64,000 bases of DNA, from NCBI RefSeq assembly GCF_023055435.1, contig NW_025964372.1, forward strand, positions 50,654,001 through 50,718,000, given 5' to 3'. Shown piece after piece: positions 374 to 48,733 of this stretch. This DNA is from Haliotis rufescens. Taxonomy: Eukaryota. The first letter of the stretch is position 1. Every line of letters starts with the position of its first letter. Both the position numbers and the translations under genes were made by a program. The notes below the pieces were generated by a model. It was not told where the DNA came from and made no database searches. It saw only the letters and a program-made list of their open reading frames with translations.

Positions 374-709
374 TCACGTACCTTGGCAGGCTCCACAGGA
401 ACGGGGGCAGAACTTAACGGAGATGTCGGGGTCGGTACAGGCGGCACCTACTGCAGTATGACACGGGAACAGAGTGTCGTCCCGACACGTCGTTAACGGT
501 GGCTCCGTCAGTGGATTGGACGATGCTGTAGGTGTGGGTGTGGTAGAGTTGTGTCCTCCTGGCACAATCCCCGGGGTAATGAATGGCGAGGTCGGAGGCA
601 CCCCCAGGATGTACTCCAGGCAGGAGAAGTCGTTGCAGCACACGCTGCAGAGGCGGGGGTCGTGGAGACAGTCAGGGGTGCCGGGGTGCCTCTTGTGGTC
701 GTGCATACA
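374..709 (-). CDS. Exon 7 (last coding exon) of secreted Ly6/uPAR-like x2 + ShKT-like protein
   Basis: Acceptor ctgttacAG at 711-710, phase 0. Encodes CMHDHKRHPGTPDCLHDPRLCSVCCNDFSC, a Pro/Thr-rich linker and CRDDTLFPC-x7-C-x9-CPRSCGAC (ShKT-like spacing), then TGA. AATAAA on minus strand at 220-215. Confidence 0.85.
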   Translation of the reverse strand, partial: CMHDHKRHPGTPDCLHDPRLCSVCCNDFSCLEYILGVPPTSPFITPGIVPGGHNSTTPTPTASSNPLTEPPLTTCRDDTLFPCHTAVGAACTDPDISVKFCPRSCGACQGT

Positions 710-791: not shown

Positions 792-2367
792 TGTTTAATG
801 CTCATACCGTGCTGTTTACCGCTGTGGACGTGCTGTTTACTACTCATACCGTGCTGTTTACTGCACATACCATGCTGTTAAATGCTGTGGACGTGGTGTT
901 TACTACTCATACAATGCTGTTTACTGCACATACCATCCTGTTTACTGCTCATACCGTGCTGTTTACTGCTCATGCCGTGCTGTTTACTACTCACACTGTT
1001 CTGTTTACTGCACAAACCGTGCTGTTTACTGCTGTGGACGTACTGTTTACTGCTCATACCGTGCTGTTTACTGCACATACCGTGCTGTTTACTGCTCGTA
1101 CCATGCTGTTTACTGCTCATACCGTGCTGTTTACTGCTCATACCACGCTGTTTACTGCTCATACCATGAAGTTTATGGCTCATACCGTGCTGTTTACTGC
1201 TCATACCGTGCTGTGGACGTGCTGTTTACTGCTGTGGACGTGCTGTTTACTGCTGTGGACGTGTTGTTTACTGCTCTAACCGTGCTGTTTACTGCTCATA
1301 CCATGCTGTTTACTGCTCATACCATACTATTTACTGCTGTGGACGTGTTGTTTACTGCTCATACCATGCTGTTTACTGCTGTGGACGTGTTGTTTACTGC
1401 TCTAACCGTGCTGTTTACTGCTCATACCATGCTGTTTACTGCTCATACCGTGCTGTTTACTGCTGTGGACGTGTTGTTTACTGCTCTAACCGTGCTGTTT
1501 ACTGCTCATACCATGCTGTTAACTGCTCATACCATGCTGTTTACAGCTGTGGACGTGTTGTTTACTGCTCTTACCTTGCTGTTTACTGCTCATACCATGC
1601 TGTTTACTGCTGTGGACGTGCTGTTTACTGCTCATACCGTGCTGTTTACTGCTCATACCATACTGTTTGCTGCTGTGGACGTGTTGTTTACTGCTCATAC
1701 CATGCTGTTTACTGCTGTGGACGTGCTGTTTACTGCTCATACCGTGCTGTTTACTGCTCATACCATGCTGTTTACTGCTCATACCATGCTGTTTGCTGCT
1801 GTGGACGTGTTATTTACTGCTCTTACCGTGCTGTTTACTGCTGTGGACGTGTTGTTTACTGCTCTTACCGTGCTGTTTACTGCTCATACCATGCTGTTTA
1901 CTGCTCTTACCGTGCTGTTTACTGCTATGGACGTGTTGTTTACTGCTCATACCGTGCTGTTTACGGCTGTGGACGTGCTGTTTACTGCTGTGGACGTGTT
2001 GTTTACTGCTTATACCGTGCTGTTTACGGCTGTGGACGTGCTGTTTACTGCTCATACCGTGCTGTTTACTGCTCATTACGTCCTGTTTACTGCTTATACC
2101 GTGCTGTTTACTGCTCATACCATGCTGTTTACTGCTACGGACGTGCTGTTTACAGCTGTGGGCGTGCTGTTTACTGCTGTGGACGTGCTGCTTACTGCTG
2201 TGGACGTGCTGTTTACTGCTTAATACCATGCTGTTTACTGCTCAAACCATGCTGTTTACTGCTGATACCGTGCCGTTTAACGCTCTAAAGGTGCTGTTTA
2301 CTGCTCTTACCTTGCTGTTTACTGCTCTTACCGTGCTGTTTACTGCTCTTACCGTGCTGTTGACTGC
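792..2367. repeat. 21-bp minisatellite, ~75 copies; unit = last 15 nt of exon 6 + GTA(A/T)GA donor
   Basis: Plus-strand units tgctgtttactgctcataccg and tgctgtttactgctgtggacg. The minus strand reads GCAGTAAACAGCACG|GTATGA and overlaps the exon 6 end at 2353. Confidence 0.95.
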
Positions 2368-2412
2368 ACATTTCGAAGAGTACCGCCCCCTTTGCTTGAC
2401 TACTTCACATGT
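2353..2412 (-). CDS. Exon 6 of Ly6x2-ShKT gene (TCEVVKQRGRYSSKCAVNST)
   Basis: tttcttcttacAG acceptor and ACG|GTAAGA donor, 60 nt, phase 0-0. Cys pattern parallels exon 3. Confidence 0.85.
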
Positions 2413-2656
2413 CTGTAAGAAGAAACATGTTGCCAGTTATGCTCCAGTGGCTATTTGTCTTAAATGTTTCCAAAATGACGACTTTACCTCAAGCCAATAC
2501 TTCACGACATTACATACGACCACCTGATGAAGTCGCAACTTATAACCAAACAAACGAGCGATGGCCTGGTTTCCGAGAGAGACAAATGAGCGGTCAGTAC
2601 ACACCGTACAAACGGCAATGGTGCGTTATTGATATCGTGCTCTGCACACTGCTTCA

Positions 2657-5600
2657 GACAGTACCAGGGAATTAGCATGGCAGGGTTGTATATTGTCTGG
2701 ACGGTACCAGGGAATTAGCATGGCACGGTTGTATATTATCTGGACAGTACAAAGGAATTAACATAGCAGGGTTGTATATTATCTGGACAGTACCAGGGAA
2801 TTAGCATGGCAGGGTTGTCTATCATCTCGACAGTACCAGGGAATTAGCATGGCAGGGTTGTATAATTTTATCTAGACAGTACCAGAGAATTAGCATGGCA
2901 TGGTTGTATATTATCTAGACAGTACCAGGGAATTAACATGGCAGGGTTGTATATCATCTGGACAGTACAAGGGAATTAGCATGGCAGGGTTGTATATTAT
3001 CTAGACAGTACCAGGGAATTAACATGGCAGGGTTGTATATTATCCAGACAGTACCAGGGCATTAGCATGGCAGGGTTCTAAATTATCCAGACAGTACCAG
3101 GGAATTAGCATGGCAGGGTTGTATATTATCCAGACAGTACCAGGGCATTAGCATGGTAGGGTTCTAAATTATCCAGACAGAACCAGGGAATTAGCATGGC
3201 AGGGTTGTATATTGTCTGGACAGTGCCAGGGAATTAGCATGGCAGGGTTGTATAATTTTAGCTAGACAGTACCAGGGAATTAGCATGGCAGGGTTGTATA
3301 TTGTCTGGACAGTACCAGGATATTAACATGGCAGGGTTGTATATTATCTAGACAGTACCAGGGAATTAGCATGGCAGGGTTGTATAATTTTAGCTAGACA
3401 GTACCAGGGAAGTAGCATGGCAGGGTTGTATATTATCTAGACAGTACCAGGGAATTAACATGGCAGGGTTGTATAATTTTATCTTGACAGTACCAGGGAA
3501 TTAGCATCGCAGGGTTGTATAATTTTATCTAGACAGTACCAGGGAATTAACATGGCAGGGTTGTATATTATCCAGACAGTACCAGGGAATTAACATGGCA
3601 GGGTTGTATATTATCTAGACAGTACCAGGCAATTAGCATGGAAGGGTTGTATATTATCTGGACAGTACCAGGTAATTAGCATGGCAGGGTTGTATATTAT
3701 CTGGACAGTACCAGGGAAGTAGCATGGCAGGGTTGAATATTATCCAGACAGTACCAGGGCATTAGCATGGCAGGGTTGTATATTATCTAGACAGTACCAG
3801 GGAATTAGCACGGTAGGGTTGTATAATTTTATCTAGACAGTACCAGGGCATTAGCATGGCAGGGTTGTATATTATCTAGACAGTACCAGGGAATTAACAT
3901 AGGAGGGTTGTATATCATCTGGACAGTACCGGGGAATTAGCATGGCAGGGTTGTCTATCATCTCGACAGTACCAGGGAATTAGCACGGTAGGGTTGTATA
4001 ATTTTATCTAGACAGTACCAGGGCATTAGCATGGCAGGGTTGTATATTATCTAGACAGTACCAGGGAATTAACATAGGAGGGTTGTATATCATCTGGACA
4101 GTACCAGGGAATTAGCATGGCAGGGTTGTATATTATCCAGACAGTACCAGGCAATTAGCATGGCAGGGTTGTATATTATCCAGACAGTACCAGGGCATTA
4201 GCATGGCAGGGTTGTATCTTATCCAGACAGTACCAGGGCATTAGCATGGCAGGGTTGTAAATTATCCAGACAGTACCAGGGAATTAACATGGCAGGCTTC
4301 TATAATTTTAGCAAGACAGTACCAGGGAATTAACATGGCAGGGTTGTATAATTTTAGCTAGACAGTACCAGGGAATTAGCATGGCAGGGTTGTATATTGT
4401 CTAGACAGTACCAGGGAAGTAGCATGGCAGTGTTGTATATTATCTAGACAGTACCAGGGAATTAGCATGGCAGGGTTGTACAATTTTATCTAGACAGTAC
4501 CAGGGAATTAACATGGGAGGGTTGTATATTATCCAGACAGTACCATGTATTTAGCATGGCAGGGTTGTATATTATCTGGGCAGTACCAGGGAATTAACAT
4601 GGCAGGGTTGTATATTATCCAGACAGTACCATGTATTTAGCATGGCAGGGTTGTACATTGTCTGGACAGTGCCAGGGAATTAGCATGGCAGGGTTGTATA
4701 ATTTTAGCTAGACAGTACCAGGGAATTAGCATGACAGGGTTGTATATTGTCTGGACAGTACCAGGGAAGTAGCATGGCAGGGTTGTATATTATCTAGACA
4801 GTACCATGTATTTAGCATGGCAGGGTTGTATATTATCCAGACAGTACCAGGGCATTAGCATGGCAGGGTTGTATATTATCCAGACAGTACCAGGGCATTA
4901 GCATGGCACGGTTGTAAATTATCCAGACAGTACCAGGGAATTAGCATGGCAGGGTTGTATAATTTTAGCAAGACAGTACCAGGGAATTAACATGGCAGGG
5001 TTGTATATTGTCTGGACAGTGCCAGGGAATTGGCATGGCAGGGTTGTATATTATCCAGACAGTACCATGTATTTAGCATGGCAGGGTTGTATATTATCTA
5101 GGCAGTACCAGGGAATTAACATGGCAGGGTTGTATATTATCCAGACAGTACCATGTATTTAGCATGGCAGGGTTGTATATTGTCTGGACAGTGCCAGGGA
5201 ATTAGCATGGCAGGGTTGTATAATTTTAGCTAGACAGTACCAGGGAATTAGCATGGCAGGGTTGTATATTGTCTGGACAGTACCAGGGAAGTAGCATGGC
5301 AGGGTTGTATATTATCTAGACAGTACCAGGCAATTAGCATGGCAGGGTTGTATAATTTTAGCTAGACAGTACAAGGGAATTAACATGGCAGGGTTGTATA
5401 TTGGCTGGACAGTACCATGTATTTAGCATGGCAGGGTTGTATTTTATCTAGACAGTACCAGGGAATTAGCATGGCAGGGTTGTACAATTTTATCTAGACA
5501 GTACCAGGGAATTAACATAGCAGGGTTGTATATCATCTGGACAGTACCAGGGAATTAGCATGGCAGGGTTGTATATTATCCAGACAGTACCAGGGAATTA

Positions 5601-7196
5601 GCATGGCAGGGTTGTATATTATCCAGACAGTACCAGGGCATTAGCATGGCAGGGTTGTATATTATCCAGACAGTACCAGGGCATTAGCATGGCAGGGTTG
5701 TAAATTATCCAGACAGTACCAGGGAATTAGCATGGCAGGGTTGTATAATTTTAGCAAGACAGTACCAGGGAATTAACATGGCAGGGTTGTATATTGTCTG
5801 GACAGTGCCAGGGAATTAGCATGGCAGGGTTGTACAATTTTATCTAGACAGTACCAGGGAATTAACATGGCAGGGTTGTATATTATCCAGACAGTACCAT
5901 GTATTTAGCATGGCAGGGTTGTATATTATCTGGGCAGTACCAGGGAATTAACATGGCAGGGTTGTATATTATCCAGACAGTACCATGTATTTAGCATGGC
6001 AGGGTTGTCTATTATCTAGACAGTACCAGGGAATTAGCATGGCAGGGTTGTATAATTTTAGCAAGACAGTACCAGGGAATTAACATGGCAGGGTTGTATA
6101 TTGTCTGGACAGTGCCAGGGATTTAGCATGGCAGGGTTGTATAATTTTAGGAAGACAGTACCAGGGAATTAGCATGGCAGGGTTGTATTTTGTCTGGACA
6201 GTACCAGGGAAGTAGCATGGCAGGGTTGTATATTATCTAGACAGTACCAGGGAATTAGCATGGCAGGGTTGTACAATTTTATCTAGAGAGTACCAGGGAA
6301 TTAACATGGCAGGGTTGTATATTATCTGGACAGTACCATGTATTTAGCATGGCAGGGTTGTATATTATCTAGACAGTACCAGGGAATTAACATGGCAGGG
6401 TTGTATATTATCTGGACAGTACCATGTATTTAGCATGGCAGGGTTGTATATTATCTAGACAGTACCAGGGAATTAGCATGGCAGGGTTGTATAATTTTAT
6501 CTAGACAGTACCAGGGAATTAACATGGCAGGGTTGTATATTATCTAGACAGTACCATGTATTTAGCATGGCAGGGTTGAATATTATCTAGACAGCAACAG
6601 GTAATTAGCATGGCAGGGTTGTATATTATCTGGACAGTACCAGGGAATTAGCATGGCAGGGTTGTATATTATCTGGACAGTGCCAGGTAATTAGCATGGC
6701 AGGGTTGTTTATTATCTGGACAGTACCAGGGAAGTAGCATGGCAGGGTTGTATATTATCTAGACAGTACCAGGCAATTAGCATGGCAGGGTTGTATATTA
6801 TCTGGGCAGTACCAGGCAATTAGCACGGTTGGGTTGCATATCATCTGGACAGTACCAGGGAATTAACATGGCAGGGTTGTATATTATCTATACAGCGCCA
6901 GGGAATTAGCACGGCAGGGTTGTATATTATCTAGACAGTACCAGGGAAGTAGCATGGCAGGGTTGTATATTATCTTGACAGTACCAGGGAATTAACGTGG
7001 CAGGGTTGTATATTATCTGGACAGTACCAGGGAATTAGCATGGAAGGGTTGTATATTATCTGGGCAGTACCAGGTAATTAGCATGGCAGGGTTGTATATT
7101 ATCCAGACAGTACCAGGGAATTAGCATGGCAGGGTTATTTATTATCTAGACAGTACCAGGGAAGTAGCGTGGCAGGGTTGTATATTATCAAGACAG
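2657..7196. repeat. 43-bp (variant 46-bp) tandem array, ~104 copies; unit = 3' part of exon 5 + GTACTG donor
   Basis: Unit cagtaccagggaattagcatggcagggttgtatattatctaga; period measured 3006->3049. The last copy is continuous with exon 5 coding sequence. Confidence 0.95.
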
Positions 7197-7260
7197 TTCT
7201 GGGGATCCGCCTCGTCATTGCAAATTGGACAGTGAAGGACCTTGGGCACCAGGTCGAGTG
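7157..7260 (-). CDS. Exon 5 of Ly6x2-ShKT gene (ALDLVPKVLHCPICNDEADPQNCLDNIQPCHATSL)
   Basis: ctcttgtttcAG acceptor and CTG|GTACTG donor, 104 nt, phase 1-0. The LxCxxC start parallels exon 2. Confidence 0.85.
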
Positions 7261-7853
7261 CTGAAACAAGAGTAAGTGACTGGGTGAGTGGTGAGTGACT
7301 GGGTGAGTGGTGAGTGGTGAGTGAGTGGTGCATTGTTTGGAGGATCCATCAAATGTACATTTCCATTACTTTTTGATGTATAGATTCATAATTTTTTTAA
7401 GGCCATCCATATTATATTTTGTGTTTCTCATCTCCATGCCTTAGACGTAGCAGTCGGTCGGGAAAAAAAGGAAACTAAATGACATTGTTATATGTGTTGA
7501 GCTAATCGTTTTTGATATATTTGTGGTGCCACAATTTCTGTATCAGTGTTGAGAGTTTAAAACACAAGATGTTAAACAAAATTGCAGGCATGGTTACTTC
7601 CCGTCTTTGTTTATACTTTATCAACACGCAGAAGATTTTTTTTTTTAAACGGGAAATGGTTTCAGAGAGCTGGATGCCACACATTTGGCCTGGAGGATGG
7701 AAGGATATAGTCCTTTATTAATTGTTTTCACGGACGGACTCATGAATATAATAGTTCGTACGCTGGTTTGGTCTTTAAAAATATGATTCGTCCCACATGG
7801 AATTTATGTTTATTTGCTTTTTGGTCTTTAAAACAAAGTATGTCGTCCTTCAC

Positions 7854-7983
7854 CTTTCTGTACGTGGTCGAGCCGCTGGAAGCACGTGTCCCCCGTGCAG
7901 CACACGACGCATTTGTCACTTGCCCCTAGAGCCTTGGTGCCCCGACAGTCCACATTGGCCTGGAGAGCTTCATAAGCGCACCT
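7854..7983 (-). CDS. Exon 4 of Ly6x2-ShKT gene (RCAYEALQANVGLSGTKALGASDKCVVCCTGDTCFQRLDHVQK)
   Basis: cattgtttcAG acceptor and AAG|GTGAAG donor, 130 nt, phase 0-1. Carries the CCxxxxC motif typical of the C-terminus of LU domains. Confidence 0.85.
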
Positions 7984-8008: not shown

Positions 8009-9075
8009 ATGAGTGGGTGGTTGAGTGGATCAATGAGTGGGTGAGTGGATTTAGAGTGGGTAAGTGGATGTGTTAGCGGGTGGGTGGATTGGTGAGTAGA
8101 TGTATGAGTGGGTGAGTGGATGTGTTAGCAGGGGAGTGGATGGGTGAGTAGATGTATGAGGGGGTGAGTGGATGTGTTAGCGGGTGAGTGGATGGGTGAG
8201 TGGATGGATGAGTGGGTGAGTGGATGTGTTAGCAGGTGAGTGGATGGGTGAGTAGATGTATGAGTGGGTGAGTGGATGTGTTAGCGGGTGAGTGGATGGA
8301 TGAGTGGGTGAGTGGATGTGTTAGCGGGTGACTGGATGGGTGAGTGGATGGATGAGTGGGTGAGTGGATGTGTTAACAGGTGAGTGGATGGGTGAGTAGA
8401 TGTATGAGTGGGTGAGNNNNNNNNNNNNNNNNNNNNNNNNNNNNNNNNNNNNNNNNNNNNNNNNNNNNNNNNNNNNNNNNNNNNNNNNNNNNNNNNNNNN
8501 NNNNNNNNNNNNNNNNNNNNNNNNNNNNNNNNNNNNNNNNNNNNNNNNNNNNNNNNNNNNNNNNNNNNNNNNNNNNNGAGTGGATGGATGACAGGATGGA
8601 TGAGTGGGTGAGTGGATGTATTAGCGGGTGAGTGGATGGGTGAGTGGATGGATGAGTGGGTGAGTGGATGTGTTAGCGGGTGAGTGGATGGATGAGTGGG
8701 TGAGTGGATGTGTGAGCGGATGGGTGAGAGGATGGATGAATGGGTGAGTGGATGTGTTAGCGGGTGAGTGGATGGGTGAGTGGATGTGTTAGCGGGTGAG
8801 TGCATGGGTGAGAGGATGGATGAGTGGGTGAGTGGATGTGTTAGCGGGTGAGTGGATGGGTGAGTGGATGTGTTAGCGGGTGAGTGCATGGGTGAGAGGA
8901 TGGATGAGTGGATGGATGAGTAGGTGAGTGGATGTATTAGCGGGTGAGTGGATAGGTGAGAGGATGGATGAGTGGGTGAGGGGATGTATTAGTGGGTGAG
9001 TGGATGTATGAGTGGGTAAGTGCATGGGTGAGTGGGTGGATGAGTGAGTGAGTGGTTGGATGAGTGGGTGAGTGG
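8009..9075. repeat. G-rich complex microsatellite (GAGTGGGTGAGTGGATG / GTGTTAGCGG variants)
   Basis: Directly visible; contains the assembly gap. Confidence 0.9.
8417..8577. other. Assembly gap (161 N)
   Basis: Run of N. Confidence 1.
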
Positions 9076-9655: not shown

Positions 9656-9712
9656 CTTTGCTGTTCCGCATCCCATAGTGATCTTCCACTCGTCCACTCT
9701 GCCGATACACTC
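9656..9712 (-). CDS. Exon 3 of Ly6x2-ShKT gene (ECIGRVDEWKITMGCGTAK)
   Basis: ttctcccattgcAG acceptor and AAG|GTAGGT donor, 57 nt, phase 0-0. Confidence 0.8.
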
Positions 9713-10042: not shown

Positions 10043-10045
<3 letters not shown>

Positions 10046-10128
<83 letters not shown>

Positions 10129-12088
10129 TGGAGATTTAACGTGCGCTTTCCGACTGATGCGTATTTCGCACACGGGCCCGGCCAGGCCATTTAATGTGTT
10201 TCCGAAAGGGGCGAAAGTGGTCTGTGCAACCCAAGAGGGGGGTTTATGGGTTGCTTATATAGAATTTGGGAATTTTGAGATTTGGAATAGATGCCGATGG
10301 GGTTGGGGAGGAGAACTAAGGGAGCTGGGTATGGTGGATGTTTGTTTGTTTATGTGATTTTGATTTGGTAGGTTATTGTGTTTTTAGATGCGTTTTATTA
10401 GTTCCGTTTTTATTAAGAATACGCCTAAGGCCTTGAAGTTTTCTAGTTTATTTTGTGGGTTTAGTATTGCTTCTAGAGTGAGAGCCTTGTTTAGATTGAG
10501 GGTGGTTTGTAATGCGGTTCGATGTGTTAGGTAGTGTGTGCAGTGGATGAGTGCGTGTTCTGGGGTTTCTGGTTGTTTGCAGTGTGGGCAGTTACCTGTA
10601 GTGTGTTTTTAAAAAAAAAAAATTAGGTGGTTATTTAGGTTGGTGTGTCCTGTTTGGAGTTTAGTGATCACTCTGTTTTTTGGTTTTTGGTTTTGGTTTG
10701 GTTAGTGGTTTGCTGAGCACTTTTTTGATTTGGCTATTTGAGTTTAGATATAGGTTATGCCATTTTTTTGTGATTTTTTGCTTGTTTACACTTTTAATTT
10801 CTGATTTTGAGATGGGTAAGTTTAAGCTTATTTCTGGGATTTTGAGGGATAGTTTAGCTGCTTTATCGGCGTTTTCATTACCGTATATTCCTACGTGGGC
10901 GGGTATCCACAAGAAGGTTATTTTTTTGCCTGCCTTAGTTAGGTCGTTGGAGCTTTTAAGTATTTGATTTATTAATTTAGGTCGGTTTTGGGTATTTTTG
11001 TTTTGGAGGGCTTGCAGTCCACTTAGGGAGTCGGTAAGTATTAGGATTTTTTTGTGGTTTTTGGATTCTTGATTATGGAGGGCTGAGGCCATGCCCATTA
11101 GTTCTGCCGTGAATATTGATTGGTTGTTTGGGAGTCGGAAGGATTGTGTGGTTTTAGTTGGTTGTGTGGTATGGACTCCGAAACCTGTGTGTTTGGAGGT
11201 CGGATCTGAGGATCCGTCCATGTAAATGTGACACCAATTTGGCCAATTTTCGTGTATGTATGCTAGTGTGGTAGTTTTAGCTATGTTTGGGTCGGTTTGT
11301 TTATTTATTTGGCTAGCTAGTGTTGTGTCTATTTTGGGTATTTTAAGTTTAGGGGTGAAGATATTTGATTGTTTGCAGTTTTGTTTAAGATTTTTAATTT
11401 GGTGTTCATTTAGGTAGTTCGTTATTCTTTGGGATATTGGGGTAAGTAAGGGGTGTTTACGAGCTAGAGCTTGGTTTTTGGGGCTGATGTTTTGGTTTAT
11501 TAAGTTTTGGATGAGAGGGTTTGATTGGGACGCGGCCCAGAAATTTAAGCTTAGCTGTTCCCTGCGTAGACTTAGTGGCATTTCTCCTGTTAAGGCCTGA
11601 AGTGAGGTGTAGGACGTGCCATGTTGGGTGCGTGTAATTAGTTTGAGAGCCTGATATTGTATTGAGTCAAGTTTTTTAGATAGAGAGTTGTTTAGGGTGT
11701 TGTATATGGCGCAGTCGTAGTCTAGTTTTGATCTAATTAGTGATATGTAGAGAGAGAGGAGGGTATCTTTGGAGGCTCCCCAGTTAGAGCCAGTTAGGCA
11801 TCTTAGGGTGTTTAGGTCTTTACTGCATTTAGTTGTTAGGTTTTGGATGTGAGCATCCCAGGTGAGATGTTCATCGAAAATAAGTCCTAAGAATTTGGTT
11901 TGTTTTTGAAATTTGATTGTTTGATTGTTTAGCTGGAGGATTGGGGAGGCGGGTTTCATGTTTTTATGTTTGAATACTATTCCTGTTGTTTTTTCTGAGT
12001 TAAGGGAGAAGCCCCATTTGTCAGCCCATTGTTGTATTTTATTAAGAGATTTTTGGAGTACATTTTGGACCATTTTCATGCAATTTTC
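10046..12088 (-). mobile_element. 5'-truncated RNase H-bearing LINE (I-superfamily-like) with (TAAG)n tail
   Basis: ORF 12079-10661 has the RT C-terminus (KFLGLIFD, LIRSKLDY) and RNase H motifs (IYMDGS, TAELMG, LTDSLS, WIPAHVGIYGNENADKAAK). A CPHC..EHALIHC knuckle follows in another frame. 11-bp TSD AATGAATGTTA at 10035-10045 and 12089-12099. Confidence 0.92.
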
Positions 12089-12605
12089 AATGAATGTTAT
12101 GAGACAGAGAGTCTATATATGTACATGTTAGAACAACAAAAGTAATAAGATAACAAAAGGTGGAAACCTAACAAGAGAAGCCAACAGATGATTTGCGCTG
12201 ATAGGTGATGAACAATAGACAATGGAAGCCAACACTTAACAGTCATTAGCGCTGATGGTATGGACAACTGGAAGCCAGGACTAAATTATCACTGATTGGT
12301 AATTGAAATTGGACAATGGGCAAACGGGAAGCCGTGGATAATTAGCACTGATAGGTAAAAACAATAGAAATAGCAAAGGGCAAATGGAAGCCAGCGACAG
12401 AATTGACACCGACAAGAATCAAAGCAATAAGCCGCCATTAAGACGTAAGCATAATTATACTCCGAAACGTTGTGTTCCTCACAATAAAGTTGATATCCAT
12501 AAAATATCTTCCTTATGTGTATAACTTCTAAATGCCTGTGACAGACTTTAAGGATGATAGTGTAAGCCGAGGCGTGATATATGGTTGTACAGATATATAA
12601 GCGGC

Positions 12606-12759: not shown

Positions 12760-12848
12760 GTCTTCAAAGTTACTGCAGGTCTCATTATGGAGCACACATT
12801 CATTGGTGTTGCGTGCAAAATGACATTTCGGACACTCCAAACAATAGC
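12760..12848 (-). CDS. Exon 2 of Ly6x2-ShKT gene (GYCLECPKCHFARNTNECVLHNETCSNFED)
   Basis: tttcattgcacAG acceptor and GAC|GTAAGT donor, 89 nt, phase 1-0. Confidence 0.85.
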
Positions 12849-13830: not shown

Positions 13831-14332
13831 GTACTTGTTCAACCAAGATTCCGGGGTAGAATAGGTCTTCAGCAACCCACGCTTGCCGTAAAAGGCGACT
13901 ATGCTTGTCGTAAGAGGCGACTAACGGGATCGGGTGGTCAGGCTCGCTGACTTGGTTCAGTGGACCGTTCAATGACAATTTAGAACTCATTAACTTGGAT
14001 GGGGTAATCTATGAGTATCTTCTTCACATGCCATCACCCATATGACATCACCCATATGACATCACCCGTGTAGCATGACATCATCCGTATGGCATGACAT
14101 CACCAATAAGCCAGGATATCATCAGTTACGCAGGACGCCGTCAGTAAGGTGATATCACAATAACAAGTGATGATATCAGTATGCCATGACAGTGAGCCTT
14201 GTCATGATCACTAAGGCATGACACAACCAGTCGGCCATGACATCAGACAGCCATGACATCAGACAGCCATGACATCAGACAGCCATGACATCGTTAGTCG
14301 GTGTCTGTAAGTACCATCAGCATACCTTCTGA

Positions 14333-14487
14333 GAGCGGCCGGGTAGCCTAGTGGTTAAAGCGTTCGCTCGTCACGCCGAAGACCCGGGTTCGATTCCCCA
14401 CATGGATACAATGTGTGAAGCCCATTTCTGATGTCCCCCGCCGTGATATTGCTAAAAGGGGCGTAAAACATACTCACTCACTCACTA
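14333..14487 (+). mobile_element. tRNA-derived SINE family A, full copy
   Basis: A box (tagcctagtggtt), B box (gggttcgattccc) and (ACTC)n tail. 12-bp TSD CATACCTTCTGA at 14321-14332 and 14488-14499. Confidence 0.9.
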
Positions 14488-15741
14488 CATACCTTCTGAA
14501 AATAAAAGAAGCAATGTCCAAAAAGTAAATTTTTCGGACATTGCCATTAGTTTCATATAAACGTTAAATCGTTTCATTTCAGCAAAAGGATTGCTACGCA
14601 CACTATAACAGTCAGACTTACCAGCCGTACCTAACTACAAAAATGACATTGTGTTGGAAGCGTAACCATGCCAACACATTATTGTTTGTCACACACGTCA
14701 ACATAAACAGACCTGAAGTGTCAAAATACTAACACCAAAGACAACCATCCACTGTTCAGCAAAGGTCACGTTTAAGACAGATGCACCCGCATTTCCAATG
14801 GGTTGGTTCGTCATCATGACATGGTATCTGACCTGGCTTAGAAAAGTTCAAACCGACGGTACGTCAGAATCGCGGCGTTTAGGCTCAGTTCGCTATAGCT
14901 CCAGAATATCCCTGCTCTTCTAAATTGTACACATTAGCATAAGTAGGACATACGTCTCTTGGTATGCTTGCTGTGCTGAAATATTTCTTCCCGGATTCAA
15001 AATTCTTATTCTCCTAATTCAATCGCAAGGCCGAAAACCCGGCTTGTCTCAAAACGTAAGAAATTAAATTTTTGTACACAATCCGATCCTATATTAGTAA
15101 ACATGGTTTAATAGTCAGTATAAGATAGCCACGCGATACACAACTTGTGGTCGTTGTTTATCGTACAATAGAACACTCCAGGGATTAAACACCACTCCCG
15201 CTGCCCTCCTCGTGGTTTATTAACTCTGTTATCACGAATGAAGCAAAATGTCGGCCTGTTTTCTGAAAAAAGTCGAACTATGCCCCATATGATAACACAC
15301 TCCCAGATCTTTTCATACCAAGCTGTGCCCGCATCGATTTGTTCTTAAACATATTTGACATATTGTGTCACGGCACTTACATTGGTAGATTGAAACACTT
15401 ATGTCGTGTATAGTCCATAGTGGTCAGCCCTTGTCACAGTGGTACGATAACAACGTACAGTTGTTTACTTAATGAATGGGATTTTGCATGGGGACTGGTT
15501 AGTTTATAAGATGTATATATTTCATTAATTAAAACTACGAGCCAAAATATTTGATAAAAACCATATTGCAACAATGTCTATGGCAGACAATTTTTTTTAT
15601 CAACAATCTGAAGCATCACGAGTCATCAATCAGGAATGACACCGGGTCAGTACCCATGTTAAGGACAGATCAGTCTGTGGGCCAGCCACATTTCACACAA
15701 TATCGATAATATAACCGCTCCGACTCGGCAGGACGCCCGAT

Positions 15742-15997
15742 TGTATGTTGTTTAACGCCGTACTCAGCAGTATTGCAGCTATATGACGGCGGTCTGTAAA
15801 TATTCGAGTCTGGACCAGACAATCCATTGATTGACATCATGAGCATCGATCTACGCAATTGGGATACGATGACATCCATCAACCAAGTCGGCGTGCCTGA
15901 CCACCCGATCCCGTTAGTCGCCTCTTACGTCAAGCATAGTCGCCTTTTACAGCCAGCCTGGTTTGCTGGAGACCTATTCTAACCCGGACCTTCACCG
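15742..15997 (-). mobile_element. SINE-like family B copy whose end seeds the 59-bp array
   Basis: Same sequence recurs at ~53395-53648, 54204-54466, 59395-59643, 59962-60137 and elsewhere. Confidence 0.8.
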
Positions 15998-17170
15998 GTC
16001 GCCTTTTACTGCCAGGTTGGGTTGCTGAAGACCTATTCTAACCCGGACCTTCACGAGTCGCCTTTTACAGCCAGCCTGGGTTGCTGAAGACCTATTCTAA
16101 CCCGGACCTTCACCGGTCGCCTTTTACAGCCAGCCTGGGTTGCTGAAGACCTATTCTAACCCGGACCTTCACGGGTCGCCTTTTACAGCCAGCCTGGTTT
16201 GCTGAAGACCTATTCTAACCCGGACCTTCACGGATCGCCTTTTACAGCAGCCTGGTTTGCTGGAGACCTATTCTAACCCGGACCTTCACGGATCGCCTTT
16301 TACAGCCAGCCTGGTTTGCTGAAGACCTATTCTAACCCGGACCTTCACGGATCGCCTTTTACAGCCAGCCTGGTTTGCTGAAGACCTATTCTAACCCGGA
16401 CCTTCACGGGTCGCCTTTTACAGCCAGCCTGGTTTGCTGAAGACCTATTCTAACCCGGACCTTCACGGGTCGCCTTTTACAGCCAGCCTGGTTTGCTGAA
16501 GACCTATTCTAACCCGGACCTTCACGGGTCGCCTTTTACAGCCAGCCTGGTTCACTTGAGACCTATTCTAACCCGGACCTTCACGGGTCGCCTTTTACAG
16601 CCAGCCTGGTTTGCTGAAGACCTATTCTAACCCGGACCTTCACGGGTCGCCTTTTACAGCCAGCCTGGTTTGCTGAAGACCTATTCTAACCCGGACCTTC
16701 ACGGATCGCCTTTTACAGCCAGCCTGGTTTGCTGGAGACCTATTCTAACCCGGACCTTCACGGATCGCCTTTTACAGCCAGCCTGGTTTGCTGAAGACCT
16801 ATTCTAACCCGGACCTTCACGGATCGCCTTTTACAGCCAGCCTGGTTTGCTGAAGACCTATTCTAACCCGGACCTTCACGGGTCGCCTTTTACAGCCAAC
16901 CTGGTTTGCTGAAGACCTATTCTAACCCGGACCTTCACGGATCGCCTTTTACAGCCAGCCTGGTTTGCTGAAGACCTATTCTAACCCGGACCTTCACGGG
17001 TCGCCTTTTACAGCCAGCCTGGTTTCACTTGAGACCTATTCTAACCCGGACCTTCACGGGTCGCCTTTTACAGCCAGCCTGGTTTGCTGGAGACCTATTC
17101 TAACCCGGACCTTCACGGATCGCCTTTTACAGCCAGCCTGGGTTGCTGAAGACCTATTCTAACCCGGACC
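15939..17170. repeat. 59-bp tandem array, ~21 copies, derived from the end of SINE-like family B
   Basis: Unit gtcgccttttacagccagcctggtttgctgaagacctattctaacccggaccttcacgg; period 16381->16440. Confidence 0.95.
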
Positions 17171-17824
17171 TGTGATACGAAGGACGCGCCCATTGATGAC
17201 TCGAAAAATGCTGCGTCTACATCAAATTTCAGCCAGAGGAGGATGTACGCTGTTAAAACACACCCTTGACTTCATACTAGTGTTTGAGCACTCCAGGGAT
17301 GGACAGTTGGTTGTGTTCTCTGCGGGTGGTGCACGTGCTCCACAGCGAGCTGATCTTTAAATGCACGTTATACGTCGCTTTAGCATGTTCTGTCAACTTT
17401 GGAGTAGGAACGTGTTTTAAGAGGGACATATCCACATAACTCCCCATTCCTTGAAACTCCTCAATTATATTCAAGGAATGGGGAGAAACGAGGAATTCGG
17501 CGCTACATATTCACTCTCGGTGACAATTTATATTTCACAACTGCAGTCATTGGGTCCATCTAAAGGGTCCGTGCCAGTAAGTGCGCTGAGACTGATTGAT
17601 ACCTTTGAGTCACTGTCGGGGGTTACCATGCAGGTCGACAGAGGAGAACACAGCACACAAAACCTCTCATATTTGGACTGTCAATATTGTATAGGTGAGC
17701 TCCAACATTATTCCATTCCCGTTTCAGTCAGAGTTAATAATTCACAGGCGTGTATACACTACATGTCCCCATAAACCATCAGGCCAACGTGCGGTGTAAT
17801 AGCGAGAGAATCGGTCACACATTG

Positions 17825-18126: not shown

Positions 18127-18169
18127 CCACAGCGATGAATACAAGTGTAAAAAAAATACCGAATCCCAT
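18127..18169 (-). CDS. Exon 1 (signal peptide MGFGIFFTLVFIAVG) of Ly6x2-ShKT gene
   Basis: ATG at 18169, hydrophobic 14-mer, TGG|GTAAGT phase-1 donor matching exon 2. The spliced CDS is 819 nt (272 aa) with no internal stop. Confidence 0.75.
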
Positions 18170-18294: not shown

Positions 18295-21200
18295 ACATTA
18301 TAGTACGTCAGGCGAGATTATATCACTGTGTTATACGTCAGACGAGGGTATATCACTGTTTTGTACGCCAGGCGAGGGTATATCACTGTGTTGTACGACA
18401 GACGAGGGTATATCACTGTGTTATACGTCAGGCGAGGGTATATCACTGTTTTGTACGCCAGGCGAGGGTATATCACTCTGTTGTACGACAGACGAGGGTA
18501 TATCACTGTGTTATACGTCAGGCGAGGGTATATCACTGTTTTGTACGCCAGGCGAGGGTATATCACTCTGTTGTACGACAGACGAGGGTATATCACTGTG
18601 TTATACGTCAGGCGAGGGTATATCACTAGTGTTATACGTCAGGCGAGGGTATATCACTAGTGTTATACATCAGACGAGGGTATATCACTGTTTTGTACGC
18701 CAGGCGAGGGTATATCACTCTGTTGTACGACAGACGAGGGTATATCACTGTGTTATACGTCAGGCGAGGGTATATCACTGTTTTGTACGCCAGGCGAGGG
18801 TATATCACTCTGTTGTACGACAGACGAGGGTATATCACTGTGTTATACGTCAGGCGAGGGTATATCACTAGTGTTATACGTCAGGCGAGGGTATATCACT
18901 GTGTTATACGTCAGGCGAGGTTATTTGACTGTGTTATACGTCGGGCGAGGGTATATCACTGTGTTATACGTCAGGCGAGGGTATATCACTAGCGTTATAC
19001 GTCAGGCGAGGGTATATCACTGTGTTATACGTCAGGCGAGGTTATTTGACTGTGTTATACGTCGGGCGAGGGTATATCTCTGTGTTTTATTACCCACGTG
19101 GTGAAGATACAGATGGTAATATACTAAATCCGTACGTCACACGTGTGTTGTTCAAGGTTGACCTTGTTTTATCCGTTTTGATTGGATAACCGTGACCTCT
19201 GTCACACCGGGACTACTTTTTTCATTCATAAAAAAATCGCGAGACGTCATTCATTTTGAAACTACAAGGCAGAACTGAAGAAATAAATGAGAACGAGAGA
19301 TATTTACAAACACTTTATTAAACCAAACAAAATAGTCACACGCATCAAATTCGGTTTGCATTATATATAAGTTATGCATGGAGCTTCTACAGACATTATA
19401 TAATCGAGCTATATCCATTTACACTGTACGACTACCGATCAATAGAGCGAGGGTCCCCATGAGCGTGACGCACCCGACAACTTTCGCAACTTTCAATTTG
19501 ATTTAACGTAAAAGGATAAGCGTGGTGAAATGAAGTCTGTTTAAACTATCTGGACAGATATTTAGACTTACTTGGGATGGTCCGGTTGTGCCACCAGTGT
19601 CCCCTTCGAAGGGTATTTTGTGGCGCTGTTACGGGAGGTGTTGTTCATGAATGAACGTACACGACTGCACGACCAAGATCATTAAAAGTGAACAGTTCTG
19701 ATACAAATAATTCGAAAACTACGTGGAAGTGTGCCTGACTTCTGATTTTGTGGCCCCAAACATCCCAAATGTGAACAATAACATTCCCTATTTCTAACTA
19801 AAACGCTGTGAGTAGGCCTAGATCACGGTTGTCTTTTCTTATTCCGGTGGTGACCTTGCCCTTCGATCGGTCGAAGCTGTCACTGACATGCAAGCAGACT
19901 TGAGTTTGTTGATTTTCACGTCTTCAGTACAGTTAACATGAATGTCTTAGGCGAACACTCGGATATCCCTCTTCCAAAATGGTACGAACATGATATAAAT
20001 TCAGCTAATAGATCAAGGAAACCGAACCATTTTGATTGCACAGACGGGACACCGGCAGTGCGAGTGACCGACTGTTAATCCGATATTCATATCGCGGCGC
20101 TAATGTGACTTTTCAAATTTTCATATAGGTGTCCTTCGTACTAGCAACATGGCCCTTGAATTACCGTAGTTGAAGAATGTCTTCCAAAAGGATCTTGAGC
20201 GTCGGTGTTGTTTTGTTTGCAAACACAACTGCAGGCGCATGTTGTTAATGCGTATGCATAGAAATGTCAACAATGCCCATATTTGGGCATATATCAATAT
20301 TCATGCGCAACCAGATTTTGCAACCGGTTTCAGTTTGGTCTGTCAACGAACGAAAGTTGTTATTTATTTACACTTGAATATATATTTAACGTAGGTAATA
20401 AATAAAATACCACACTCATTCTCGTTAGATACCATTTTTACATAACTCGTGAACTTTCTATGTTATCTGACCTCGCTTTCGCTCGGTCAGATACCATAGA
20501 AAGTCCACTCGTTTCGTAAAAATGGTATCTAACGAGAATGAGTGTAGTATTCTCTATATACGTCAGGCGAGGGTATATGACTGTGTTATACGTCAGGCGA
20601 GGTTATATGACTGTGTTATACGTCAGGCGAGGGTATATCACTAGTGTTATACGTCAGGCGAGGGTATATGACTGTGTTATACGTCAGGCGAGGTTATATG
20701 ACTGTCTTATACGTCAGGCGAGGGTATATCACTAGTGTTATACGTCAGGCGAGGGTATATCACTAGTGTTATACGTCAGGCGAGGGTATATCACTGTGTT
20801 ATACGTCAGGCGAGGTTATATGACTGTGTTATACGTCAGGCGAGGGTATATCACTAGTGTTATACGTCAGGCGAGGGTATATCACTAGTGTTATACGTCA
20901 GGCGAGGGTATATCACTGTGTTATACGTCAGGCGAGGGTATATCACTCTGTTGTACGACAGGCGAGGGTATATCACTGTGTTATACGTCAGGCGAGGTTA
21001 TATGACTGTGTTATACGTCAGGCGAGGGTATATCACTCTGTTGTACGTCAGGCGAGGGTATATCACTAGTGTTATACGTCAGGCGAGGGTATATCACTAG
21101 TGTTATACGTCAGGCGAGGGTATATCACTGTGTTATACGTCAGGCGAGGTTATATGACTGTGTTATACGTCAGGCGAGGGTATATCACTAGTGTTATACG

Positions 21201-23301
21201 TCAGGCGAGGGTATATCACTAGTGTTATACGTCAGGCGAGGGTATATCACTGTGTTATACGCCAGGCGAGGGTATATCACTCTGTTGTACGACAGGCGAG
21301 GGTATATCACTGTGTTATACGTCAGGCGAGGTTATATGACTGTGTTATACGTCAGGCGAGGGTATATCACTAGTGTTATACGTCAGGCGAGGGTATATCA
21401 CTAGTGTTATACGTCAGGCGAGGGTATATCACTGTGTTATACGTCAGGCGAGGTTATATGACTGTTTTATACGTCAGGCGAGGGTATATCACTAGTGTTA
21501 TACGTCAGGCGAGGGTATATCACTAGTGTTATACGTCAGGCGAGGGTATATCACTGTGTTATACGTCAGGCGAGGTTATATGACTGTTTTATACGTCAGG
21601 CGAGGGTATATCACTGTGTTGTACGACAGACGAGGGTATATCACTGTGTTATACGTCCGACGAGGGTATATCACTGTTATATACGACAGACGAGGGTATA
21701 TCACTGTTATATACGTCAGGCGAGGGTATATCACTGTGTTGTTCGACAGACGAGGGTATATTACTGTTTTGTACGACAGACGAGGGTATATCACTGTGTT
21801 AAACAGCAGACGAGGGTATATCACTGTTTTGTACGGCAGACGAGGGTATATCACTGTTTTGTACGACAGACGAGGGTATATCACTGTGTTATACGTCAGG
21901 GTAGGGTATATCACTGTGTTGTACGGCAGACGAGGGTATATCACTGTGTTGTACCTCAGACGAGGGTATATCACTCTTTTGTACGTCAGACGAGGGTATA
22001 TCACTATGTTATACATGTACGACAGACAAGGGTATATCACTGTTTTGTACGCCAGGCGAGGGTATATCACTGTGTTATACGTAAGGCGAGGGTATATCAC
22101 TGTGTTATACGTCAGGCGAGGGTATATCACTGTGTTATACGTCAGGCGAGGGTATATCACTAGTGTTATACGTCAGGCGAGAGTATATGACTGTGTTATA
22201 CGTCAGGGTAGGGTATATCACTGTGTTATACGTCAGGGTAGGGTATATCACTGTGTTGTACGGCAGACAAGGGTATATCACTGTGTTGTACGGCAGACGA
22301 GTGTATATTACTCTTTTGTACGTCAGACGAGGGTATATCACTATGTTATACATGTACGACAGACGAGGGTATATCACTGTTTTGTACGCCAGGCGAGGGT
22401 ATATCACTGTGTTATACGTCAGGCGAGGGTATATCACTGTGTTATACGTCAGGCGAGGGTATATCACTAGTGTTATACGTCAGGCGAGGGTGTATCACTG
22501 TGTTATACGTCAGGCGAGGGTATATCACTAGTGTTATACGTCAGGCGAGGGTATATCACTGTGTTATACGTCAGGCGAGGGTATATCACTAGTGTTATAC
22601 GTCAGGCGAGGGTATATCACTGTGTTATACGTCAGGCGAGGGTATATCACTGTGTTGTACGTCAGGCGAGGGTGTATCAGTGTGTTATACGTCAGGCGAG
22701 GGTATATCACTGTGTTGTACGACAGGCTAGGGTATATCACTGCGTTATACGGCAGACGAGGGTGTATCAGTGTGTTGTACTACATACGAGGGTATATCAC
22801 TGTTTTGTACTCCAGTCGAGGGTATATCCCTGTGTTGAACGGCAGGCGAGGGTATATCACTGTTGTACAACAGCCGAGGGTATATCACTGTATTGTACGA
22901 CAGACGAGGGTATATCACTGCGTTGTACGACAGACGAGGGTATATTAGTGTGTTATACGTCAGGCGAGGGTATATCACTGTGTTATACGTCAGGCGAGGG
23001 TATATCACTGTGTTATACGTCAGGCGAGGGTATATCACTGTGTTATACGTCAGGCGAGGGTATATCACTGTGTTGTACGACAGACGAGGGTATATCACTG
23101 TGTTGCACGACAGGCGAGGGTATATTACTGTGTTATACGACAGGCGAGGGTATATCACTGTGTTGCACGACAGGCGAGGGTATATCACTGTGTTGCACGA
23201 CAGGCGAGGGTATATCACTGTGTTGCACGACAGGCGAGGGTATATCACTGTATTGTACGACAGACGAGGGTATATCACTGTGTTGGACGACAGGCGAGGG
23301 T
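18295..23301. repeat. 30-bp (variant 31-bp) tandem array, ~115 copies, interrupted by a 1.47-kb insertion
   Basis: Unit tatcactgtgttatacgtcaggcgagggta. Confidence 0.95.
19086..20558. mobile_element. Non-autonomous element with a long subterminal palindrome (Crypton-like), inserted in the 30-bp array
   Basis: Splits one array unit at tgtgt^tata. ~146-bp imperfect palindrome at 20406-20551. 14-bp inverted pair tttattacccacgt (19086) / acgtaggtaataaa (20389). No coding region recognised. Confidence 0.55.
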
Positions 23302-24298
23302 AGTCCGACAATCAATGAGTGACGATACCAGGTGTTTGGAAAAGGTAAGCATATCCTGCCCAATCTGTTGCACCCGTCAGAGACACCCGAGGACATAAGG
23401 TACAAGTCAAACTGGGTAACTGGACGCTTTTTGTCACCTGATGCATTAAATGTTCTCCACATGTCTGACATCAAACATTTTGAAAACATTACTTTGGCCT
23501 TGAATGCCGGATCCCTGGTTAAACAACTTTGGGGCAAAAGTCGTATGGCGCTTTTAGAATTCTTCGTAAAAAGAGTATTCTCGATTGAACCTCAAAATGT
23601 TGTGAATGTAGATACCAAAGGTTGAGACTGCTTGGATAGTGCTCGACATAAAGCGTAAGTTGACTGAAGTATAAGTCATCCCTCCTGTCATACAGGCCTC
23701 ATCTTCCCGAGGCAAGAGAGTTAACTGACTTTAAAAGTCCAGTTTCCACCCTTGCCGAACTAGGCTGGAATTACTGGGCTCGATCGTAGCGCCACCAGTG
23801 GCTATTACCAGTTATGTCCCTTCTAAGCCTCTACTATGGACCAATCAGATTCCACCTCTCGTATCAAAATGGTGGCGCCGAGTCAGGACGATCTGATCGA
23901 TAATCAAGATCTATATTGTGATAAAACCGGGTCTTACATCGCGAAATACATCAAATCACGTGAGCACCTTGATTAAAAAGATGAAAAGATTTGGAATAAT
24001 ATCTGTTGACAACGAGTTGGCGGTGCACATGCTTTGCAAATACTGCAGTCGAGCGAAATCTGCACGACAGTTTACGAACCGGATTTCGATTTCGGTTGAT
24101 TGGACTATGCATAGACTCGTTAGTCCAGCCAAACTCCATAATACCAGCCTAGTTCGACAAGGGTGGAAACTGGACTTTTATAGTCAGATAACTCCTTTGC
24201 CTCGGGAAGATGATTTATCTATAGGGGCTGCTAACAAGACGTCCAAGTCAATATCAAGATGTTTTGTTTGTTTGTTATTTAACGCTGCAATGTTCCAG

Positions 24299-32150: not shown

Positions 32151-32949
32151 CTGAGCAATGGTGAATGTACTTCAAATTGTGTTCGAACGTCCTGATGAGG
32201 AATACCATTCAACTATATACAAGCATTTGTCTTTGTTTGTATTACCGATGAAGTATGTTGCCATGGTATGCATGGTCTCCAGATCCCGGTATGATACACA
32301 CCGTCTATGTTTACTCGTATTTGATATATAATTCATCATTTAGAAAACGATCTGGCTGAAGTGAGAAAAGAAGTCGACAGAAGCCAGTTCAAACATGTTT
32401 CTGGTTTTCATTACTTTTTTCAAAGGTGAATATGTCGCGAGGGTAGGTTACAATTCAATAGAAGTAAATTTGACTCTCTATATATTTGGACATTTTTTAA
32501 GAAAATATTTTCAAAGAATATTGAAGTCAGCTCATATGAATTAGAAAACCAACAATAATAACTTCACACGCAGCTTTTTTTAATCATTAACAAAGAAAAT
32601 GTAGACAGCGGAACAGTAAGACAATAAAATCGACAAAACCTTTTCCATGTCCATAAGAAATCTCTAAAAGCAGATTGGATTGTACGATTCCGCCTATATG
32701 CTGATTATGTGTTTATGAATCACTATCAAATAGTTATGATACAAGGCTTCTCGATTATAGGCCATTAGTGGGCGTGGCCTAATTTTGTTGCTTAACCATC
32801 CAATCAAAGGCTAGACTGGAAACTTAATATATTCAGCCAGTATCCCTGCGACTTGAAGAATGATAATATCCATGGTAACCAAGGCTAGGGTCACCTGTGA
32901 ATCTGACACACTATCATATTTAACTATACGTAAAATCGCGTGTACAAAA

Positions 32950-35900: not shown

Positions 35901-37361
35901 TTTTTCAATATAATTACAACGTTTTTCATCTGATATATTTGAATATCTGCGAGTACCGGCACATGTCTTGCAGTCCGACTTCGCAGTGTTTTTTGCCTTT
36001 CATTTCCTGGTTCATTATCTGTGGGTCATATCATTTTCTTTCGTATTTCAATGGTCAAGTTAACACCTCGGCTTATCTACGGGATCGGCTTATCCGCGGT
36101 CATATACGGTAAGCGTGGTGTACAATGTCTGTACCTCTTCTATGAAACAATGGTCCATATGTTGCTAAAAAAAACAACTGATGTGTATCAAAAAGAAACA
36201 CCAACTGATCTCTGCTTGATGCTTGTGTGACGAGGAAAAGGCAGAATGCATTATACCAATTCATGTGCTTACTGGACGTGACCATAACTCTGGTTTCTAT
36301 GGGATTGGCAAGAAGAGTATTGTACATCGCACCCAGCATCCTGAAGAAGCACAGAGCCTGCTAACAAGTTGTGGTAGAGAACTTCCTGTCACACAAGATA
36401 AGAACTTGGAACGATTTGTAATTCGTTATGTCTATTGTGATTCCAAAAGTGCAAGTTTGGGAGACGTCAGGGCATCCAAGTGGAGAGAACAAAAGAAAAA
36501 AACACCACCAGACTTGCACGTGATTCGGACAGTCTCCGCCATCACTTGGAACGGGCAAACTACTTGGCATATTTGCACCCCTCTCCAATAGGTCATGGTT
36601 GGCATTGTGATCCTGGGCTTTACCTGCCTGATCGTCACACACCCCGCTTTACCTTCAACAATTACCTTTCCTGCAATCTCACCAGCAGACGATAATGACA
36701 GTGATCTATCTAGTGATTCTGATGACGGCAGTGATGAGAGCTCATGCAATGACTCATGTAGTGAATAAGTGTAAGGAGTTTCCAAAGCATCTTTTTACTT
36801 GTGTTCTGTAGTTCTTAGTACAGTATTACCTACTCATATAATTATAAGTATTTCAAACACCCAAATAATTTCATGTATGGTGACCATTTTGAATATTGAG
36901 ATAAATATGATCCCGAGGATAAAATTAACCATTCCAATAGTTGTATCATGTTAAAATTAGTTAGATAAGACACCTCATCTGTTCTTGTAGCCCATCTAGT
37001 ATTCGAGATATGATATGTTCTGTTTTTCATGATGGCAGCCGGCGGCCATCTTGGAATTCAAGGTCAGAATTGCTTCTAATATAAATAATAACGATTCCAA
37101 TGGATTTATCATGTTCAAATTAGTGGAATTAGACACCTTATATGTGTCTGTGGCTGATATTCTTCCAGAGATAGACTATTTCATGCTATTAAAAATGGCG
37201 CCGACGGCCATTTTGAATTTTGCGTTCTGGCAGAGTTAGCCGTCTTTTTCCAGAGGGTCATAGGGGGCTAATTTTTTAGTTAAACATGCCAGTTAAACAG
37301 GTCCATCGTAAAAAAAGGTAGGAACAAGGTGGTCACGGATTCCAGGGATATGACTCTACTA
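32950..37361 (+). mobile_element. Academ-like DNA transposon with degenerate transposase/XPG-like coding region
   Basis: ~485-bp near-perfect TIRs (32950-33434 / 36878-37361), termini TAGTAG..CTACTA, 3-bp TSD AAA. Frameshifted fragments AIVDNDDF, GDYPVY..PFHIQMSF..GSG..L..AG..GSVDQALRGKH and HVLTGRDHNSGFYGIGKK. Confidence 0.85.
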
Positions 37362-45349: not shown

Positions 45350-45535
45350 CTACGTTTTCTTGCAGATGAAATACTGACGCATGGACCAGCTCAAAACAGT
45401 TCTCGGCGTGTTTTGCATTATCGGGTTGTCCTGGTGCCCAGTTGGTGAAGTCCAAGTTCAGTTTACTGTGTGACCACATCCAGTTGGCCTCGCTCAGGAG
45501 ATCATTTCCTCCGAGCCATACAGCCCGCACGGACA
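45350..45535 (-). pseudogene. Last exon of a C-type lectin (perlucin-like) with a frameshifting deletion
   Basis: LSVRAVWLGGNDLLSEANWMWS..FTNWAPGQPDNAKHAENCFELVH, then RQYFICKKT* in the +1 frame. The WND-x2-C segment is absent. Confidence 0.8.
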
Positions 45536-48500: not shown

Positions 48501-48733
48501 TGGTATACGTATTACATTGGTATGTGTATTACATTGGTATGCGTATAACATTGGTATGTGTATTACATTGGTATGTGTATTACATTGGTATGCGCATTCC
48601 ATTGGTATGTGTATTACATTGGTATGTGTATTACGTTGGTATGCGTATTACATTGCTATGCGTAGTACGTTGGTATGTGTTTTACATTGGTATGCGTATT
48701 ACATTGCTATGCGTATTACATTGCTATGCGTAT
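45558..48733. repeat. 17-bp tandem array, ~185 copies
   Basis: Unit tattacattggtatgtg, giving 17-aa periodic ORFs in all three frames. Confidence 0.95.

Follow-up and report, generated by a model that had tools for sequence, protein, structure and literature searches.

A 43-nt minisatellite reiterating the exon 5 end and splice donor of a cysteine-rich protein gene in the abalone Haliotis rufescens

The stretch analysed here, referred to as the window, comprises 64,000 nucleotides (nt) of Haliotis rufescens (RefSeq assembly GCF_023055435.1, contig NW_025964372.1, positions 50,654,001 to 50,718,000) and carries on its minus strand the first seven coding exons of a gene for a cysteine-rich protein. 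Intron 5 of this gene is largely occupied by a tandem array with a 43-nt unit, which consists of the last 41 nt of exon 5 and the donor GT. The array starts at 7197, inside exon 5, and its first unit therefore spans the real exon-intron boundary. We take it to be, with a probability of roughly 85%, a neutrally expanded intronic minisatellite that was seeded by the end of exon 5, with the first donor still in use. Exon numbers count coding exons only ('exon 5' is the fifth coding exon), and a slash within a motif marks the splice boundary. The features of the gene and its arrays, all on the minus strand, are as follows.

18127..18169, minus: first coding exon, from protein alignment and exon translation (hydrophobic, signal-peptide-like by eye)
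12760..12848, minus: coding exon 2, from protein alignment and exon translation
9656..9712, minus: coding exon 3, from protein alignment and exon translation
7854..7983, minus: coding exon 4, from exon translation and the loose ends of RNA-like contigs
7157..7260, minus: coding exon 5, 104 nt, ending ...CLDNIQPCHATSL in phase 0 (RNA-like contigs over 7157-7262)
7191..7197, minus: ACTGTCT, the 7-nt terminal repeat as it occurs in the exon, inside codons N-C-L
7151..7159, minus: authentic exon 5 donor CTG/GTACTG
7156-2413, minus: intron 5, 4744 nt (94.9% array, 252 nt unique)
7142..7144, minus: in-frame TAA of unit 1, contained in the product of any downstream donor
2656..7197, minus: 43-nt minisatellite (one copy in the exon, then 103 full units and a partial unit of 9 nt in the intron)
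2656..2662, minus: ACTGTCT at the array end and start of the unique intron (same junction in runs X7 and X14)
2413..2664, minus: unique rest of intron 5, 252 nt including the partial unit, carrying the real acceptor
2353..2412, minus: coding exon 6, 60 nt, TCEVVKQRGRYSSKCAVNST (first 30 nt reached by the loose ends of the exon 5 contigs)
792..2371, minus: 21-nt array of about 74 units, repeating the end of exon 6 with its donor ACG/GTAAGA
382..709, minus: coding exon 7; the gene extends past the window start

The seven exons translate into the first 270 residues of H. rufescens XP_048245589.1 (270/270 identical), and 263 of the 270 residues are shared with the H. cracherodii protein (7 differences). 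Each exon carries a GT donor, and exons 2-7 are preceded by an AG acceptor. When exon 7 was used as the query, the 107 candidates included three longer proteins, one each from Haliotis cracherodii, H. asinina and H. rubra, and a cluster look-up added XP_048245589.1. The short, unrelated proteins P0007 and P0008 (cluster 3) were dropped. XP_048245589.1 is 948 amino acids long and cysteine-rich, with Thr/Pro-rich linkers and a domain block that is internally repeated three times. Its cysteine pattern appears ShK-like by eye. Pfam gives no family for proteins P0005, P0003 and P0001, and the Atlas gives no feature match, with Ly6/uPAR-like structural look-alikes found only below threshold (TM by query 0.30 or less).

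Tandem Repeats Finder delimits the 43-nt array at 2656-7197, with 104.2 copies, 87% matches and a score of 6641. When split along the minus strand, the 103 full units that follow the exon comprise 82 of 43 nt and 21 of 46 nt, and the splice signal is reiterated head-to-tail across them. A sequence-only reading of this stretch had proposed about 104 copies of the exon 5 end with its donor, filling ~95% of the intron, ACTGTCT once in the exon and again where the unique intron begins, and a TAA within five codons of read-through. All of these are borne out: the two heptamers lie at 7197-7191 and 2662-2656, and read-through past the first donor gives V-L-S-R-stop, with the TAA at 7144-7142. Its count of about 100 near-identical competing donors stands as to their near-identity but not as to their number, with 76 of the 103 downstream donors carrying the authentic 9-mer CTG/GTACTG and 94 retaining GT (GC in 8, TT in 1). 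The authentic donor is weak, matching the U1 consensus at 5 of 11 positions; the other donors of the gene match it at 5-9 of 11. A four-unit fold has an energy of -22.7 kcal/mol, compared to -23.7 +/- 3.6 for 200 mononucleotide shuffles, and thus shows no special RNA structure.

The use of the first donor is seen in contigs assembled from sequencing runs. Of the 24 runs listed, none is on record as RNA and 6 are guessed to be RNA; four were compared, over 7100-7290 only. Both RNA-like runs, X15 and X16 (one study), have one contig each over 7157-7262. These contigs (depth 36.8 in X15 and 87.7 in X16) leave the genome at 7157 and continue into window positions 2412-2383, in exon 6, and on the other side into exon 4. 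Since they end at 7157 and enter exon 6, the first donor is the one used, and the RefSeq models agree with this. No second-donor joint or loose end is listed for the contigs of X15 and X16, which drop rare forms. X15 additionally contains a repeat-only contig of 73 nt at a depth of 2.2, consistent with pre-mRNA or DNA. The duplicated unit has produced no new exon or intron: the protein is colinear with its orthologues, and the exon 5 contigs join exon 6 directly. Transcripts with an early stop upstream of many exons are targets of nonsense-mediated decay. Any later donor of intron 5 would place the TAA of unit 1 in the transcript ahead of many further exons, and its products would be such targets. 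The earlier proposal that only the first donor is productive agrees with these observations, as 2/2 RNA-like runs join 7157 to 2412 and later donors bring in the stop.

The array consensus (2665-7156, minus strand) differs from the exon copy at three positions. Two of these changes create a YAG (unit positions 10-11) and a CTAAT (positions 33-37), with the branch A 18 nt before the AG; the exon copy has neither the AG nor the CTAAT motif. The AG at positions 10-11 is present in 74/103 units (TAG or CAG in 70) and CTAAT in 56, and an upstream YTAAY, an AG and a following GT occur together in 53 of the 102 units tested. The array could be pictured as a splicing device, acting through nested intron removal or through 32-nt poison exons (from the AG to the next GT) that lead to decay scaled by copy number. 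In favour of this are the roughly 50 complete branch-acceptor-donor cassettes, the lack of both signals in the exon copy, and the frameshift and stop that would follow from inclusion of a single 32-nt pseudo-exon. If true, the array would be a minisatellite on its way to a role in splicing, but this is at odds with the conservation of the unit: of the 35 positions scored, the acceptor positions T9 (68/103) and A10 (74/103) are the most variable, with the C of CTAAT (77/103) third. In addition, the real acceptors of the gene are more T-rich, and no internal-AG junction is listed for the contigs compared over 7100-7290. In 100,000 trials, three random changes give the AG/CTAAT pattern in 0.5% (strict) to 14% (loose branch motif) of cases, in a test picked after the pattern had been seen. 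We consider a splicing device improbable.

Recursive (ratchet) splicing uses AG/GT sites. Stepwise removal of this classical kind, which had been raised for intron 5, finds no basis in the unit, which lacks an AG/GT junction (AG at positions 10-11, GT at positions 1-2). With 32 nt between the AG and the next GT, no donor is regenerated when an internal AG is used. The abalone intron resembles recursively spliced introns in its internal acceptor-like and donor-like motifs, but differs from them in this spacing and in its length of only 4.7 kb.

The variation among the units fits a neutral array. Identity is flat along its length, at ~87% to the exon copy compared to 93% to the consensus, and the 43-nt units show a pairwise difference of 10.8%. 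The same blocks of 4-6 units reappear 10-59 units apart. Variant alleles are without codon-position pattern (13/19/15 over 13/14/14 sites by codon position), and the donor T is kept in 95/103 units, compared to a mean of 94% (35/43 unit positions scored). Flat identity, recurring blocks, the absence of a codon pattern and an average donor T are as predicted by neutral expansion via slippage or unequal exchange.

Sequence exchange between array and exon, through gene conversion or unequal crossover, would allow the array to feed amino-acid variants into the protein, for example the rufescens-specific Thr139. The ACT (Thr) codon of the exon does occur in 8/103 units, and the other three species have Ser there, although these units are more simply explained as relics of the seed. 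The near absence of the exon alleles from the array argues against ongoing exchange: of the two synonymous ones, T10 is found in 0/82 of the 43-nt units and 5/21 of the 46-nt units (a derived background), and C31 in 1/103, with 8/103 for the third exon allele, and no array unit equals the exon copy. The exon-spanning contigs of X15 and X16 also show no listed difference inside exon 5. Such exchange is therefore very unlikely, and the exon copy appears to have stayed outside the homogenisation of the array since seeding.

The exon is older than the array, as its codons are kept in other abalones and within the protein's own domain repeats. H. cracherodii, H. asinina and H. rubra (3/3) all have CLDNIQPC(H/Q)xSSL, followed across the junction by TCE. 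Within the protein itself, two further repeats of the domain can be aligned with exon 5 (E 7e-7 and 4e-6 against the window). The sequence-only reading had the array seeded from the exon end, and had named an orthologous exon without the repeat-matching codons as the observation that would overturn this; the codons are present in all three species looked at, and seeding from the exon is upheld. The opposite route, recruitment of the exon end from a pre-existing satellite, is largely refuted already and can be practically discounted, for although DNA runs give the repeat a very high summed contig depth and copies elsewhere in the genome are possible (short-read contigs collapse the array, and summed depth does not equal copy number), the three other species and the internal domain repeats keep the codons, two cysteines among them, and no copy of the unit is found elsewhere in the window, where the best matches are 9-11 nt exact or 15/17.

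The consensus of the array also bears on when seeding took place. It encodes Ala at residue 138, as do H. rufescens and H. cracherodii, whereas H. asinina and H. rubra have Ser, which suggests seeding after the split from the asinina and rubra lineages. Repeat units are present in runs X7 (DNA, from another study, same organism label) and X14 (different organism label), and in both the change from repeat to unique intron falls exactly where it does in the window (29/30 letters equal in X14). The identical boundary indicates that the far end of the array is old and stable. The unique part of exon 5 is without X14 cover, a hole which proves nothing. Seeding likely occurred after the asinina/rubra split and before divergence from the source organism of run X14.

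The two copies of ACTGTCT sit in register of the 43-nt unit. If the flanks are random, a clean duplication has a probability of ~6e-4 of showing by chance a terminal overlap of at least 7. In a looser search, 2/8 other arrays in the window have terminal overlaps of 7 nt or more (9 and 12 nt), and a cut last unit would give the same 7-nt terminal repeat as microhomology. We lean, with some reserve, towards a first duplication seeded by the ACTGTCT repeat. Microhomology-mediated tandem duplication is described as common and mostly neutral by Wei et al. 2026 (PMC13167724), and the abalone array is alike in that a short direct repeat (7 nt here) bounds the unit. A microhomology origin would predict an ancestral array-free intron of ~250 nt, starting GTACTGTCT. 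Searches of metagenomes yielded no array-free orthologous intron 5: the exon 5 pattern had 0 matches, and of the 360 pattern matches obtained with the protein alignment none was confirmed.

The anatomy of the array, the greater age of the exon codons, the splice from exon 5 to exon 6 in the principal RNA contigs and the stop met from later donors are all observed, and the neutral account adds four proposals to them. First, a single local tandem duplication of the exon 5 end and GT would have used the 7-nt ACTGTCT repeat. Second, slippage or unequal exchange, seen as repeated unit blocks, would have brought the array to ~104 copies. Third, the first donor would win through its position upstream of all other copies, as is the case in human F7, and through the dependence of this weak donor on exon definition. 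Fourth, rare transcripts from later donors would be cleared by nonsense-mediated decay.

The abalone array is a large molluscan case of a known class of junction-spanning minisatellites. In human F7 intron 7 (a 37-bp variable number tandem repeat), CBS IVS13, 6-16, LMNB2 and PDGF, the first unit spans the exon-intron junction, and mutagenesis of F7 showed that the copies are functional and the most upstream is chosen, even over stop-free copies (Borensztajn et al. 2006, PMC1557585). As in F7, LMNB2 and PDGF, identical copies of the donor follow one another through the intron, and splicing takes the first of them. The abalone array differs in having ~104 copies compared to 5-25 in the human arrays, and in a unit that is exonic over 41/43 nt, compared to 4/37 in F7 (PMC1557585). 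All later abalone donors carry a stop, while some F7 pseudo-sites are stop-free; in CBS and 6-16 two downstream sites are used as well, in contrast to none in the abalone contigs (PMC1557585). The abalone array extends first-donor preference to ~100 copies of a weak donor.

Similar 'mirage' repeats occur in the lancelet Adh3 and globin genes, where splicing is undisturbed (Ebner et al. 2010, PMC3087553). The abalone array resembles them as a set of tandem exon-intron boundary copies in an invertebrate with continued normal splicing, in having splice signals in many but not all units, and in boundary copies that lie outside homogenisation (PMC3087553). Its 43-nt unit is inside the 10-72 bp range of Adh3, and its copy number far exceeds the 3-6 of BflGb6 (PMC3087553). 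The abalone array has led to no intron gain. The surprise implied earlier at first-donor use despite so many copies was overstated, as such use is documented for both F7 and the lancelet mirages (PMC1557585, PMC3087553). An intronic 27-bp minisatellite of variable copy number is known from abalone, and the accessible part of its description does not present it as junction-spanning (PMC6905558). The literature search gave no paper that treats this locus or junction arrays in molluscs, most subscription papers being outside its reach.

The donor of exon 6 is amplified as well, in the 21-nt array at 792-2371. The identity of its units to the seed falls from 95% to 71% across the first four, with a mean of 81%. 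Read-through of the exon 6 donor is open for 36 codons, and donor copies 2 and 3 (ending 2332 and 2311) are in frame and stop-free, adding 7 or 14 residues. Copy 3 (AAG/GTAAGA) matches U1 slightly better than the real exon 6 donor. The rufescens and cracherodii models use the first exon 6 donor. The copies in intron 5 are all out of frame and decay could hide their use, whereas decay could not hide use of copies 2 and 3 in intron 6, which are equal or stronger, in frame and stop-free. If the cassettes of intron 5 did act in splicing, the neighbouring array of exon 6, being in frame, would provide a decay-free control within the same transcript. The pairing of an out-of-frame and an in-frame array in one gene could make positional donor choice and surveillance separable in an invertebrate. 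At about 740-790 the 21-nt array abuts a truncated copy, recognised by eye, of a common repeat resembling a short interspersed element (SINE), which suggests a deletion at the array end.

Several points weigh against neutral expansion with exclusive use of the first donor. Two successive donors of one gene have been amplified, which a neutral account with a single duplication leaves unexplained. The RNA evidence consists of two contig sets from one study, with an RNA status guessed by the tool, and as contigs drop rare forms, low-level use of later donors or internal acceptors is possible. The human CBS and 6-16 genes also use the next two pseudo-sites (PMC1557585). Finally, it is two of only three exon-to-consensus differences that make the AG and the CTAAT, 18 nt apart.

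Other repeats lie within and next to the gene. At about 14320-14500 (minus strand) is a SINE-like interspersed repeat with a 12-nt direct repeat on both flanks, which includes a microexon-like AG-AAG-GT. A 3-nt microexon at 14493-14495 was rejected, being absent from every full-length protein model seen, and a one-residue isoform difference in H. rubra was rejected as a microexon trace, as its position falls after exon 7. Intron 3 contains an assembly gap (161 N, at 8417-8577) within a low-complexity array. Intron 2 contains, at about 10500-12100 (minus strand), the remnant of a retrotransposon without long terminal repeats (reverse transcriptase end and RNase H region, by eye), which is adjoined by a (TTAC)21 microsatellite at 10043-10128. 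A 59-nt minisatellite at 15939-17171 derives from part of an interspersed repeat, single copies of which are found near 13840-13960, 54340-54460 and 59380-59520. Just upstream of the first coding exon, one 30-nt unit forms two separate arrays, at 18304-19086 and 20557-23302.

Further from the gene, long inverted repeats (by eye) at about 32900-33430 and 36870-37350 enclose a decayed coding-like region, likely the relic of a DNA transposon. At about 45360-45535 (minus strand) is an exon-like segment reading ...W.W.DHTV..LDFTNWAPGQPDN...ENC, C-type-lectin-like by eye. A 17-nt array of 187 copies at 45560-48734 ends ~25 nt before the acceptor of this lectin-like exon and does not include it. Exons of what by eye resembles a Cys-loop ligand-gated ion channel subunit lie at about 61950-64000 (minus strand).

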